64,000 bases of DNA from Escherichia coli (GTDB lineage: Bacteria > Pseudomonadota > Gammaproteobacteria > Enterobacterales > Enterobacteriaceae): the NCBI RefSeq assembly GCF_044647545.1, contig NZ_CP172818.1; one strand, written 5' to 3'. Below are positions 55,801-64,000 of this stretch, in pieces (the stretch's first letter is position 1; each line of letters opens with the position of its first letter). Made by a program: the position numbers.

Positions 55801-58800
55801 GGCTCTGGTACTGTTTGCCTGGCTGATTGTTGGTGGTGGTGCGATTAACTATGTGATTCAAAGCGTCATCGCATAAACCACTACATCTTGCTCCTGTTAA
55901 CCCGCTATCATTACCGTTTTCCTCCAGCGGGTTTAACAGGAGTCCTCGCATGAAATACATTGGAGCGCACGTTAGTGCTGCTGGCGGTCTGGCAAATGCC
56001 GCAATTCGCGCCGCCGAAATCGACGCAACCGCGTTTGCCTTGTTCACCAAAAACCAACGTCAGTGGCGTGCCGCACCGCTCACGACGCAAACCATCGATG
56101 AATTCAAAGCCGCCTGTGAAAAATATCACTACACATCGGCGCAAATTCTTCCCCACGACAGTTATCTGATTAACCTCGGACATCCGGTCACTGAAGCTCT
56201 GGAAAAATCGCGCGATGCCTTTATAGATGAAATGCAGCGTTGCGAACAGCTGGGGCTTTCTTTGCTCAACTTCCACCCTGGCAGCCATCTGATGCAGATT
56301 TCAGAAGAGGATTGCCTTGCGCGTATTGCCGAATCCATCAACATTGCGCTGGATAAAACTCATGGTGTGACAGCGGTGATTGAAAACACCGCCGGTCAGG
56401 GCAGTAACTTAGGGTTTAAATTCGAACATCTCGCGGCGATTATCGACGGCGTGGAAGATAAATCCCGCGTCGGCGTCTGCATTGATACCTGCCATGCTTT
56501 CGCTGCCGGGTATGATTTGCGTACTTCTGCCGAATGCGAGAAAACGTTCGCGGATTTTGCCCGTATTGTCGGCTTTAAGTATCTGCGCGGGATGCACCTT
56601 AACGATGCGAAAAGCACCTTTGGCAGCCGCGTTGACCGCCATCATAGCCTCGGTGAAGGCAATATCGGTCATGATGCGTTCCGCTGGATCATGCAGGACG
56701 ACCGTTTCGACGGAATTCCGCTGATCCTTGAAACCATCAACCCGGATATCTGGGCAGAAGAGATCGCCTGGCTGAAAGCGCAACAAACTGAAAAAGCGGT
56801 AGCCTGAAGATGAATAACCGGGAGAAGGAGATCCTTGCAATATTAAGGCGTAACCCGCTGATTCAGCAGAACGAAATTGCGGATATGCTGCAAATCAGCC
56901 GTTCGCGTGTTGCAGCGCATATTATGGATTTAATGCGCAAAGGACGGATTAAAGGCAAAGGTTACATTCTCACCGAGCAGGAATACTGCGTAGTGGTGGG
57001 GACAATCAATATGGATATTCGCGGGATGGCGGATATCCGTTACCCGCAAGCGGCTTCTCATCCCGGTACCATTCATTGCTCGGCAGGCGGCGTTGGACGC
57101 AATATCGCCCACAATCTGGCGCTGTTAGGCCGCGACGTTCATTTGCTTTCAGTGATTGGCGATGACTTTTATGGCGAAATGCTCCTGGAAGAAACGCGCC
57201 GCGCCGGCGTGAATGTCTCCGGCTGCGTTCGTTTACATGGTCAAAGCACATCGACGTATCTGGCAATTGCCAATCGAGACGATCAAACCGTGCTGGCGAT
57301 TAACGATACCCATCTGCTGGATCAGTTGACACCGCAACTACTGAACGGGTCGCGCGATTTACTTCGTCATGCGGGCGTGGTACTGGCAGATTGTAACCTG
57401 ACAGCCGAGGCGCTGGAATGGGTCTTTACCCTCGCTGATGAAATCCCGGTGTTTGTCGATACCGTTTCAGAATTCAAAGCGGGCAAAATCAAACACTGGC
57501 TGGCGCATATTCACACCCTGAAACCCACTTTACCGGAGCTGGAAATTTTATGGGGACAGGCGATCACCAGCGATGCTGACCGTAATGCCGCAGTGAATGC
57601 ATTACATCAGCAAGGTGTTCAGCAACTGTTTGTTTATTTGCCCGATGAGTCAGTTTATTGCAGCGAAAAGGATGGAGAACAATTTTTGCTGACCGCACCA
57701 GCGCATACGACAGTAGACAGTTTTGGTGCTGACGATGGTTTTATGGCGGGTCTGGTATATAGCTTTCTGGAGGGAAACAATTTCCGTGACAGCGCCCGTT
57801 TTGCGATGGCCTGCGCAGCAATTTCACGCGCCAGCGGCAGCTTAAACAACCCTACCCTGTCTGCCGATAACGCGCTTTCATTAGTGCCGATGGTGTAACA
57901 ATGTTGCCGGATTCGACGCTTGACCGCGTCTTATCCGGCTCATAACTCGCGCACTACGCTAAACCAATAAAGAACCCGGCAATGGTGGCACTCATCAGGT
58001 TAGAAAGTGTCGCCGCCGCCAGCGCGCGTAAACCAAGCTGGGCGATTTCCGGCGCACGGTGTGGCGCAACCGCAGAAAACGCCCCCACCACCACCCCGAT
58101 AGAACCAAAGTTAGCGAAACCGCACAACGCGAAGGAAATAATCGCCACGGTTTTAGCATCCAGAGTGCCAGCTGTTTGCAGATAAGGTGAGAAATTGAGG
58201 TAAGCGACAAATTCATTTATTGCCAGTTTCTGTCCAATCAAACTCCCGGCAAGATTCGCATCACTCCAGTCAACACCCATTACCCACGCCAGTGGGGCCA
58301 GCAGGTAACCTAAAATGGACTCCAGCGAGGCATGTTCAAAACCAAACCAGCCGCCAACGCCGCCGATAATACCGTTAATCAACGCAATTATTGCAACAAA
58401 TGCCATCACCACTGTCGCCACACCTGCGGCGATTTTCAGCCCGGTCATTGCCCCTGTCGCAGCGGCTTCAATAATGCTTTTTGGCGGTGTTTCGGTGAAA
58501 GAGAGGTTATTAAAGGAAACCTGCGAAGATTCCGTGGCCGGACTTAACAGGCGAGCAAATAAGATCCCGCCAGGGATCGCCATTAACGATGCCGCCAGCA
58601 AATATTCCACAGGTACGCCCAGTGCGGCGTAACCAATCATTGTCGAACCAGCAATCGAGGCCATGCCACTACAAATCGCTGTAAATAATTCATTGCGATT
58701 CAGCCGATCGATAAAGGGTTTGACGATTGCCGGAATTTCGTTTTGCCCGAGGAAAATGGTAGTGACCGCGACGAATGACTCGATCTTGCTGATATTTAAT

Positions 58801-61800: not shown

Positions 61801-64000
61801 GTACGCCCATTCCGGCATAACCGATCATCATCGAACCCGCAATGGACGCCATCCCGCTACAAATTGCAGTAAACAACTCGTTGCGATTCATGCGATCGAT
61901 AAACGGTTTAACGATCGCAGGGATCTCATTTTGCCCGAGGAAAATAGTGGTAACCGCAACAAAAGATTCGATTTTGCTGATGTTGAGAGCTTTCTGAAAA
62001 ATACTGCCAAGAATGCGGATTAGCAGCCCCATCACGCCAATGTAGTACAGCAGACTGATGAGCGCAGTAACGAAAATAATCGCCGGAAGTACGCGAAAGG
62101 CGAAGATAAAACCCGCACCGTCAAACAAGACATCCATTTTCGGCCCAACCAGCGAACCAAAAATGAAGGCGCTACCGGCATCACTGTAAGACATCACTTT
62201 ATGAACGCCTAATGCCGCCAGTTCAACTGCCCATTTTCCCGGTGGGAAGTAGAGCATGATGCCACCAATAGCGATTTGCAGCAGCAGCGCGGCTCCAACC
62301 GTGCGTAAACTGATGCTCTTTTTATTCACTGATAACAGAAATGCTATTACCAGTAACACCACCATCCCCACAACACTTCTCATTATATCCATAATGATTT
62401 CCCCTTCATACCAGTAAACCCGACGTCAGCGCCAGGTTCTGGTATGTATGATCATACGGGCGACGGCTTTCTGCCCGTCAGAAATTAACCCGCGAGACGC
62501 TGGTATTCTTTGGCAATTTCGCTCGCCAGAATGGCGTTGTTGAACACCAGTTGGATGTTGGATTTCAGACTGTCACCGCCGGTCAGTTCTGCAACACGAG
62601 CCAGTAGGAACGGTGTACTTTCTTTACCAATAACGCCCTGCTCTTCGGCTTCGGCGACGGCCTGATCTATGGCTGCATTAATTGACTCCTCCGCCATCGC
62701 AAACTGCTCCGGGATCGGATTCGCCACTACCAGACCACCGTTCAAACCGGTTTGCCATTTCACTGCCATTGCACGAGCGATTTCTGTGGCACTATCAAGG
62801 CGAATGCTGACCTCAAACGGGCTGGTACGGCAGAAAAACGCAGGCAGCGCTTTTGTCTGATAGCCAATTAACGGCACACCGAAGGTTTCTAAATATTCTG
62901 TTGTTAATCCTAAATCGAGAATGGATTTTGCACCGGCACAAACAACGGTGACATTAGTATTTGCCAGTTCTTGCAAATCGGCAGAAATATCGAAGGTATG
63001 TTCCGCCCCGCGATGCACACCACCAATTCCCCCGGTGGCAAATACTTTAATTCCGGCAAGCGCCGCAATAATCATCGTTGAAGCCACAGTGGTTGCGCCA
63101 TTTTTTCCGGCGGCAACAACAAAAGGTAAATCGCGACGACTAACTTTGGTCACGTTATGCCCTTCGCGACCCAGCAATTCAATTTCTTCTTTGCTTAAAC
63201 CCACTTTCATCACGCCGCCAATAATGGCGATAGTGGCAGGTACAGCGCCCTGTTTACGAATAGTTTCTTCAACTTCAATTGCGGTCTGGGCATTTTGTGG
63301 GAACGGCATCCCATGAGAAATAATGGTCGATTCCAGCGCCACAACCGGTTTTTTGTTTTTTAAAGCGTCCTGCACTTCCGGGGAAATTTGTAATAATTCA
63401 GGGGAAATTTTTAATTCAGACATTCTGCGTTCTCCACTAACGATATAACGTTGGCAATCGATAAATCGGGGTTATTGGTGTATTCACAGGAGAGCGCCAT
63501 TGACGAACATCCCTGTGCGAAACGAACGGATTCGGCAAACGGCATTCCGTCTACCCAACACGAAGCAAGTCCCGCCATCATGGCATCGCCCGCTCCGGTA
63601 ACATTAATAACATTGGTTTTGATCGGCGCAGACCAGCCACTTTCACCGCTGATATCGCTGTAATAAACGCCATCGCCGCCCATGCTCAATACCAGTCGGT
63701 TCAGCCCATGTTGATGGAACCAGGCAGCAACTTTTGCCACATCTTCACGCCCTGACAGCGCAATCCCACTCAGGGTTTCCGCTTCAAGGCGGTTTGGCTT
63801 GAGAGTGTGGATTTGATTTAGACGGTCGCGCACTTTGACACATTTCCACGCAGAAACCGGATCGACAAATACGGGTACGTTGGCGGCATTATCCAGAATC
63901 CATGCCAGTGCCTCTTCACTGATATTACAGTCCGCGACAATGACCTTTGCCCTCTGAATAAATTCACGATGCTGTGCGAGATATTCAGCTGTAATAGCGT

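Follow-up and report, generated by a model that had tools for sequence, protein, structure and literature searches.

Comparative sequence analysis predicts two nested nucleoside-salvage units with separate regulators, YeiI and YeiL, in the yeiI-psuK region of Escherichia coli

Pseudouridine salvage in Escherichia coli proceeds through two characterised enzymes, the pseudouridine kinase PsuK and the pseudouridine-5'-phosphate glycosidase PsuG (PMC9061257, PMC9247573), and structures of PsuK are available (PMC9247573); psuK (yeiC), psuG (yeiN) and psuT (yeiM) were first identified by Preumont et al. 2008 (cited in PMC9061257, PMC12506659). Nearby genes encode RihB (YeiK), a pyrimidine-preferring nucleoside hydrolase with structures 1Q8F and 3B9X (PMC10526354), and NupX, which transports uridine and cytidine weakly; no transport of uridine, cytidine or xanthosine was detected for PsuT, whose role with pseudouridine is assigned by association only (PMC11241209). 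Of the two putative regulators encoded in the same region, YeiI has been termed uncharacterised (PMC9061257, PMC12506659), and YeiL, which is proteolytically unstable (PMC12974527), is listed in RegulonDB with just one regulated gene and a single binding site (PMC9308461). In the literature searched, no regulator or repressor of the psu operon was described, and no YeiL targets were found beyond the single RegulonDB entry. Here we analysed these genes in a 64,000-nucleotide stretch of the E. coli chromosome (RefSeq assembly GCF_044647545.1, contig NZ_CP172818.1; hereafter the window, whose coordinates are used unless a locus is named), together with the loci of their relatives in other bacteria.

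We consider it rather probable, from these comparisons, that the region is made up of two nested units with a regulator each, YeiI for psuKGT and YeiL for rihB-nupX and for yeiL itself. What is described below about the identity of the genes, their synteny, the conservation of motifs and the residue patterns was read directly from the sequences. The first and ancestral unit would be nfo-yeiI facing psuT-psuG-psuK. In this unit PsuT, presumed from its operon association to be the importer, would bring in pseudouridine, which PsuK is established to phosphorylate, and PsuG to cleave, as pseudouridine 5'-phosphate, to give uracil plus ribose-5-phosphate. YeiI would be a paralogue of an ancestral bifunctional pseudouridine kinase bearing a helix-turn-helix (HTH) domain, a protein that appears still to head the psu operon in other Gammaproteobacteria. 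After gene duplication in Enterobacteriaceae, PsuK would have kept catalysis and lost the HTH domain, and YeiI would have kept the HTH domain and the pseudouridine pocket with changes in two catalytic motifs. YeiI is predicted to bind a two-box operator overlapping the psuK transcription start and thereby to repress psuKGT, with pseudouridine or its phosphate as the likely inducer. The second unit, nupX-rihB with divergent yeiL, would have been inserted between yeiI and psuT, probably via recombination of the paralogous transporter genes; in it YeiL, with four conserved cysteines, would bind TATGAGAAATCTCATA, activating rihB-nupX from a class II-like position and regulating its own promoter. 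The genes concerned are as follows.

56810-57898, plus strand: yeiI, 362 amino acids (HTH_24, E=1.2e-10; PfkB, E=5e-68), predicted to act on psuKGT as repressor or sensor.
57954-59204, minus strand: nupX, 416 amino acids, NupC/CNT transporter with three NupC/CNT domains, placed second in a predicted rihB-nupX operon.
59304-60245, minus strand: rihB, 313 amino acids, pyrimidine ribonucleoside hydrolase (IU_nuc_hydro, PF01156, E=2.8e-98).
60375-61073, plus strand: yeiL, 232 amino acids, GTG start, CRP/FNR-family regulator (cNMP_binding, E=4e-14; HTH_Crp_2).
61142-62392, minus strand: psuT, 416 amino acids, NupC/CNT transporter (Pfam, RefSeq), last gene of psuK-psuG-psuT.
62485-63423, minus strand: psuG, 312 amino acids, pseudouridine-5'-phosphate glycosidase (Indigoidine_A, E=2.8e-132; RefSeq).
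63411-64000, minus strand: psuK, C-terminal part, cut by the window end (PfkB, E=7e-39).

To place YeiI among its relatives, 80 genomic loci encoding such proteins were annotated by tblastn with E. coli proteins. At 48 of 48 loci outside the Enterobacteriaceae, from Morganella, Serratia, Yersinia, Photorhabdus, Xenorhabdus, Hafnia, Gilliamella, Pasteurellaceae and Shewanella, the gene for the HTH-PfkB protein is followed directly by an overlapping or abutting psuG and usually next by a NupC-type transporter gene. The kinase domain of these proteins is 58-60% identical to E. coli PsuK, compared with 50-55% to YeiI. Scored against the NCBIfam PsuK equivalog NF007355 (cut-off 540), the Serratia protein reaches 447 bits, slightly better than its score on the YeiI model, E. 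coli PsuK reaches 716 bits and YeiI fails at 258 bits. Given the closer identity to PsuK and the Serratia model scores, the HTH-bearing protein outside the Enterobacteriaceae appears to be the pseudouridine kinase itself.

These operons share a promoter motif with psuK of the Enterobacteriaceae. Two boxes of the form AACA-N2-TGTT, 18 bp apart centre to centre, precede the start codon by 30-34 bp at 31 of these 48 HTH-psuK loci; in Shewanella the pair lies about 58 bp upstream with a 19-bp offset. The motif recurs in all 33 Enterobacteriaceae psuK promoters (at most 2 mismatches in 16 specified positions), beginning there directly after a TAYYAT -10 element with TTTACT as -35, and the sequence surrounding the two boxes has diverged within that family. 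The E. coli pair falls at 12426-12453 of the RefSeq E. coli locus L001, about 425-452 bp past the window end, and the K-12 psuK promoter contains AGCACATGTTTAAATATGAACACATGTT between -130 and -50 from the ATG. No other conserved two-box sites were found in 682 kb around these loci, and none resembling them near yeiI, nupX, rihB, psuT or psuG in E. coli. Its co-occurrence with HTH-psuK genes and with Enterobacteriaceae psuK promoters makes the motif a predicted operator. Between E. coli YeiI and Shewanella HTH-PsuK the HTH motif SRSxVAxHIMxL..KG..GKGYI does not change, in a domain under purifying selection, and because this recognition region is invariant, YeiI is the obvious candidate binder where PsuK lacks an HTH.

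One published substitution falls in this promoter. In long-term stationary-phase lineages of E. coli a single-nucleotide polymorphism (SNP) was recorded in the psuK/fruA intergenic region at -126 from psuK (PMC7858067, supplement). This position, L001 12480, lies about 480 bp past the window end. It is base three of the -35 predicted for psuK, which would change from TTTACT to TTGACT, a promoter-up change that supports the psuK promoter assignment. The same position is also among the listed differences of the parental strains, so the SNP may not represent independent parallel evolution. In the same study nupX was mutated four times in one culture (PMC7858067).

A two-box-like sequence in the window, AACAGTTGTTCGATTTCAACCGCCTGTT within the yeiE reading frame (54478-54505, 2 mismatches), is found in Escherichia only and is within chance expectation, and we judged it fortuitous. 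A separate observation concerns Xenorhabdus (L010, CP147734.1), whose chromosome encodes two HTH-PfkB paralogues, P0085 and P0098; upstream of the paralogue examined stands a palindrome, TCATGTTCAAACATGA, in place of the 18-bp two-box layout.

YeiI itself has a winged-HTH domain in residues 1-48 and a PfkB domain (PF00294) over residues 58-348, scores 813 bits on NCBIfam NF007416, and is 40% identical to PsuK across the kinase domain. A search of PDB sequences returned no structure of an HTH-PfkB fusion, the nearest solved protein being PsuK. We mapped 19 residues with roles in pseudouridine binding, metal binding or catalysis in PsuK (PMC9247573) onto the family. The sequences of 33 Enterobacteriaceae PsuK and 47 HTH-PsuK proteins agree at all 19, and the 35 YeiI sequences keep 16, including every hydrogen-bonding pseudouridine contact and the catalytic Asp. 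Of the twelve pseudouridine contacts (N14, D16, S30', G41, V42, N45, Y97, M114, N143, V166, S167 and K170), eleven are identical in 35 of 35 YeiI sequences, the exception being M114. The three changed positions are M114T and G255D (GAGD to GADD), both in every YeiI sequence, and the Asn of the NxxE motif (N187), replaced by Thr in 34 sequences and by Ala in one, so that the YeiI motif reads TLPE. The NxxE Asn and the GAGD Gly are kept in all 80 PsuK and HTH-PsuK sequences, and the GGVGRN stretch of the N-terminal GG motif is invariant in the family.

The same residues bear on a first alternative, that YeiI is chiefly an active kinase acting on another nucleoside or on a ribosyl compound (perhaps one entering through NupX), with an HTH domain that is vestigial or autoregulatory, and that some other factor acts at the psuK operator. 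Kinase activity would fit the kept catalytic Asp, GG motif and most pocket residues, and NCBIfam gives YeiI an equivalog of its own named 'sugar kinase'; against this, NxxE and GAGD are both altered across the whole YeiI clade. Loss of the base-clamp residue M114 to Thr in 35 of 35 sequences could mean altered specificity. The adjacency of yeiI and nupX in E. coli would suit an imported substrate, but yeiI occurs without nupX or rihB in most Enterobacteriaceae. Also against this alternative, YeiI and the HTH-PsuK proteins share an invariant recognition region, operator-like sites are lacking near yeiI, nupX and rihB, and the two-box operator has been retained at promoters of psuK genes that encode a kinase without an HTH. 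We regard this alternative as unlikely and prefer YeiI as the repressor of psuKGT.

For the second regulator, the evidence centres on the spacer shared by rihB and yeiL, in which we distinguish the following elements; a further site inside yeiL is listed with them.

60346-60361, no strand assigned: YeiL box, the perfect 16-bp palindrome TATGAGAAATCTCATA, in the CRP-type 5-6-5 layout (TATGA-N6-TCATA).
60318-60323, minus strand: predicted rihB -10 hexamer, TAAGAT, read from the spacer sequences.
60314-60342, plus strand: predicted yeiL promoter, with -35 TTGAAT (60314-60319), a 17-nucleotide spacer and -10 TATGCT (60337-60342).
60867-60882, no strand assigned: CRP-type site GGTGATCTTTATCACG inside the yeiL coding sequence, a pattern match.

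YeiL matches the cNMP-binding family PF00027 (E=4e-14) and the Crp-type HTH family PF13545 (E=5.6e-6; 26.7 bits, marginally below the 27-bit cut-off), and its NCBIfam subfamily model at 414.7 bits against a cut-off of 180. Ten diverse homologues were compared for cysteines that might serve as ligands of an FNR-type Fe-S cluster: at least 90% of them have Cys104 and Cys129, and most have Cys80 and Cys106. In the recognition-helix segment VSYRHLLYV 5 of 9 positions are identical in 10 of 10 sequences. With up to 3 mismatches allowed, the 64-kb window contains no second YeiL box, and neither does the 16-kb reference locus. The box is kept at all yeiL loci and stands beside yeiL-like genes in eight lineages: its sequence does not vary among Escherichia, Citrobacter, Phytobacter, Entomohabitans, Hafnia and Izhakiella, and it reads TATGAGAATTCTCACA in Enterococcus. 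Four distant family members (39-46% identity) have the boxes TATGAGATATCTCACA, TATGAGAAATCTCACA, TATGAGATATCTCACA and TAGGAGATATCTCATA, each just upstream of its own gene; two of these remote homologues are on contigs of about 1 kb, in which the motif is readable and there is little gene context. The divergent partners of the remote homologues are a xanthine permease gene with a xanthine-dehydrogenase-like operon, an MFS transporter gene and a methyltransferase gene. At one of the loci, on a metagenome contig (L094, 3474-5666), the YeiL homologue is 42% identical, has the same palindrome and is transcribed divergently from a xanthine/uracil permease gene and a xanthine-dehydrogenase-like operon, and the family may thus have a general link with the catabolism of nucleobases and nucleosides.

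By sequence reading, -10-like hexamers on the rihB side (TAAGAT in E. coli; TATGAT, TATGCT and TATCAT in other Enterobacterales) lie at a constant 23-28 nucleotides from the palindrome in 5 genera. This would centre the box about 42.5 bp upstream of where rihB transcription is predicted to start, a class II position typical of CRP/FNR activators. Transcription of yeiL from its predicted promoter would begin inside the box. We infer that YeiL controls rihB-nupX and itself from one box shared by the divergent promoters. An FNR-like sequence, TTGAATCTTAACAA (60314-60327, 2 mismatches to the FNR pattern), overlaps the predicted yeiL -35; over the window, matches to the consensus patterns occur at chance frequency (CRP, 25 against 24 expected; FNR, 37 against 32 expected), one of the hits being the conserved palindrome. 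The CRP-type site GGTGATCTTTATCACG has been listed as an in vitro CRP footprint '(yeiL)' (PMC12871828), and has no obvious promoter downstream, psuT being convergent. At 60298-60310 on the minus strand, within what would be the rihB leader, there is a small GC hairpin with a T-rich run after it, a feature that is not conserved in other genera.

A second alternative would confine the palindrome to autoregulation of yeiL and leave rihB-nupX cryptic, under CRP, H-NS or quorum signals. Remote YeiL homologues do keep the box by their own gene while the divergent partner changes, but the yeiL-rihB pair persists through apparent inter-phylum transfer and relocation within Enterobacterales (described below), and in every case with enough sequence the box is in the shared divergent spacer. 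RegulonDB, as noted, has a single regulated gene with one site (PMC9308461), and rihB has been reported as physiologically silent and induced in autoinducer-2 conditioned medium (PMC2898832); a silent rihB also fits an activator-dependent promoter. The constant class II-like distance between the box and the rihB-side hexamer further argues for a site that serves rihB, and we hold autoregulation alone to be quite improbable beside YeiL control of rihB-nupX.

Gene order across the Enterobacteriaceae places these two systems in separate units. In 24 of 33 informative Enterobacteriaceae loci, yeiH-nfo-yeiI directly faces psuT-psuG-psuK-fruA without nupX-rihB-yeiL; the cassette-free taxa include Citrobacter, Enterobacter, Buttiauxella, Kluyvera, the Klebsiella oxytoca group, Leclercia, Pseudocitrobacter and Escherichia albertii. 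The full cassette is present in 7 loci (four Escherichia, one of four Citrobacter amalonaticus, one of two Phytobacter, and Entomohabitans), and its arrangement is irregular in Citrobacter koseri. In Hafnia and Izhakiella yeiL is divergent to rihB-nupX in unrelated neighbourhoods that lack yeiI and psu genes. This divergent layout recurs, along with a palindrome of the same type, in Enterococcus malodoratus (L002, 6945-8672), where YeiL is 59% and RihB 76% identical and rihB is followed by genes for a PfkB kinase and a Bmp/ABC nucleoside transporter. The fraction of guanine plus cytosine (G+C) in E. coli yeiL is 0.436, compared with 0.49-0.52 in neighbouring genes, and the Enterococcus copy and this low G+C together suggest horizontal transfer of yeiL-rihB between phyla.

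These patterns leave little room for a third explanation, that in E. coli YeiI regulates adjacent nupX-rihB and YeiL regulates psuT-psuG-psuK, or that both act over the whole cluster: physical clustering is its sole support, the YeiL box occurs once, in the rihB/yeiL spacer and not upstream of psuK, psuG or psuT, psuTGK lacks yeiL in most Enterobacteriaceae as yeiL-rihB lacks psu genes in Hafnia, Izhakiella and Enterococcus, yeiI and yeiL are convergent with and not upstream of the proposed targets, and we consider it very improbable.

How the cassette may have come and gone is suggested by the E. albertii locus. The spacer between the convergent yeiI and nupX genes of E. coli is given below, with a weak repeat match that overlaps it.

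57899-57953: yeiI/nupX convergent spacer with an inverted repeat resembling repetitive extragenic palindromic (REP) elements (weak naRNA4/REP match at 57892-57940).

The E. coli sequence from 57892 to 57953 differs little from the E. albertii spacer between yeiI and psuT (L016, 7704-7763), REP-like repeat included, and in the adjoining E. albertii transporter gene only the last ~100 nucleotides are more nupX-like. This spacer identity and nupX-like 3' end point to recombination between nupX and psuT, so that gain or loss of the cassette probably occurred by homologous recombination between these directly repeated paralogues. The two transporters share 88% of their amino acids and ~78% of their nucleotides, and in a transporter tree the rihB-linked and psuG-linked copies form mostly separate groups, the copy from Izhakiella being basal. 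We also considered that nupX and psuT had recently undergone gene conversion and rejected this, since the ~78% nucleotide identity is uniform along the gene, the flanks are unrelated and the tree groups are largely separate.

Variation continues within E. coli. In about 850-980 E. coli genomes nupX is reduced to a 66-nucleotide pseudogene remnant with rihB, yeiL and psuTGK kept; genomes of the B2/ST131 type carry this remnant, an example being the ST131-type E. coli TUM14697 (L096, 2503-2568). If rihB-nupX is an operon, such strains own a hydrolase without its transporter. Rare larger deletions were also seen in E. coli CUPS04 (L098) and Escherichia sp. MOD1-EC7003 (L015): one strain lacks everything from the 3' part of yeiI to psuK, and another lacks psuT and psuK and keeps psuG.

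Several points weigh against the proposed pairing of regulators and units. The protein-site pairings, the sign of regulation and the ligands are all inferred from sequence comparison. YeiI retains the catalytic Asp, so kinase activity may persist. The Enterobacteriaceae psuK promoters are orthologous, and conservation of the two-box motif in them is partly shared ancestry; each 10-bp box is moreover short for a winged-helix dimer. E. coli pyrimidine auxotrophs are said to have required mutations to grow on pseudouridine (Breitman, in 1970), by which pseudouridine may be an inefficient inducer. On the YeiL side, none of the cluster's intergenic regions contains a promoter by a strict sigma-70 scan. 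In work by Anjum and colleagues from 2000, yeiL is reported to be autoregulated positively and repressed by FNR, and the single RegulonDB target is reportedly yeiL itself; the predicted yeiL start would put the box where repressors usually sit, at odds with positive autoregulation.

The remaining features of the locus were obtained from a list of open reading frames for 54000-64000, scored against Pfam and NCBIfam. The region is the classical K-12 annotated yeiI–nupX–rihB–yeiL–psuT–psuG–psuK region, and the cluster is thus already known: RefSeq E. coli chromosomes carry the same gene names at 99.6% identity over the 8-kb stretch, 5,425 of 5,426 complete E. coli genomes match the region, and psuK, psuG and psuT of the window are 96-100% identical to RefSeq. 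Its flanking genes are yeiE, yeiH and nfo at one end, with fruA at the opposite end. A first-pass annotation of the window had named the seven genes, including the partial psuK, and reading frames, Pfam, NCBIfam and RefSeq bear out every identification. NCBIfam equivalog or subfamily cut-offs are passed by YeiI, RihB (723.6 bits on NF007417, cut-off 459), YeiL, NupX and PsuT; on TIGR00804 (cut-off 442) NupX scores 499.7 and PsuT 514.7 bits, with three CNT domains each. The RihB translation contains DCDPGHDD, the N-terminal DxDxxxDD calcium/ribose motif. PsuG had no NCBIfam match at 1e-10, and covers PF04227 over profile positions 1-291 of 291 at 440.9 bits, a full-length fold. The complete psuK is at L001 11413-12354 (RefSeq E. 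coli locus), and psuG starts 13 nucleotides before the end of psuK, the stop codon of the latter lying within the overlap. A permissive Rfam scan of 54000-64000 found no riboswitch or small RNA, its sole match being the sub-threshold REP/naRNA4 hit (E=0.93). One gene outside the cluster stands directly before yeiI.

55950-56807, plus strand: nfo, endonuclease IV (open reading frame, Pfam AP_endonuc_2, RefSeq).

The gap between the nfo stop codon and the yeiI ATG is 2 nucleotides and is identical in 35 of 35 Enterobacteriaceae loci, a constancy that makes co-transcription of yeiI with nfo, an oxidative-stress-inducible gene, probable.

The same annotation had described two nucleoside-related modules with two putative regulators, a description that holds, and had called the whole an island. 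Clustering is real, whereas the single island gives way, by synteny, to an ancestral nfo-yeiI/psuTGK locus with a nupX-rihB/yeiL cassette inserted. The region was compared with the hallmarks of a mobile island (an integrase or transposase, a tRNA target, flanking direct repeats and deviant composition): no genes of this kind were found among its reading frames or annotation, its composition is not deviant (G+C 0.49-0.52 save yeiL), and variable presence is limited to the three-gene cassette. It had further been stated that the sequence does not make plain which of the regulators governs which module; this is correct for the present sequence taken alone, and no longer so once gene context and conserved operators are compared between genomes.

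With the cluster itself already described, what our analysis would add is the composite-origin model and two specific regulatory predictions. YeiI and YeiL are E. coli K-12 regulators with essentially no known targets, and the comparison offers each an operator and a target operon. It seems to us an evenly balanced proposition that the HTH-PfkB proteins form an undescribed class of trigger enzymes, pseudouridine kinases repressing their own psu operon through the two-box operator, that such an enzyme split into PsuK and the regulator YeiI, and that, with the YeiL box, two orphan K-12 regulators thereby gain targets. Neither regulatory prediction is described in the searchable literature, a search that did not extend to curated regulon databases, so that earlier computational predictions are possible. 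If the role of YeiI is as proposed, it would show bacterial sensing of the turnover of a modified RNA nucleoside and would provide a clean example of an enzyme-repressor dividing into enzyme and regulator. There is also a practical side, as strains producing pseudouridine for mRNA-vaccine supply manipulate psuK, psuG and psuT, whose regulator is not known (PMC13090712, PMC10552469).

Compared with known systems, the enzymes and transporters of the window are familiar. Within the NupC/CNT transporters (NupC, NupX, PsuT, vcCNT), NupX and PsuT fall in the NupX/PsuT/vcCNT branch (PMC11241209); they differ from each other in belonging to operons with different enzymes. The psu genes are the same as the known E. 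coli psuK-psuG-psuT in the genes present, in the kinase-glycosidase-transporter order and in the psuK/psuG overlap. RihB is no different from the known enzyme, and what is new is its conserved divergent pairing with yeiL and the 76% identical Enterococcus copy. YeiL resembles the CRP family in its cNMP-binding-like domain, Crp-type HTH and 5-6-5 palindromic site layout, and differs in its half-site, TATGA/TCATA with a GA..TC core as opposed to TGTGA (CRP) or TTGAT (FNR), and in cysteines (Cys80, Cys104, Cys106 and Cys129) that are spread through the sensor domain. For YeiI the closest parallels are trigger enzymes and enzyme-derived regulators, among them BirA (HTH and biotin ligase), NadR (HTH with NMN adenylyltransferase/kinase) and the ROK repressors NagC and Mlc, which have a sugar-kinase fold. 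These proteins share with YeiI an N-terminal DNA-binding domain fused to an enzyme fold that recognises, or in YeiI would recognise, the metabolite of the pathway. NagC and Mlc, set beside the ROK kinases, resemble YeiI as kinase paralogues apparently retained as regulators. YeiI differs from all of these in its fold, which is that of PfkB/ribokinase and not ROK, ligase or adenylyltransferase.

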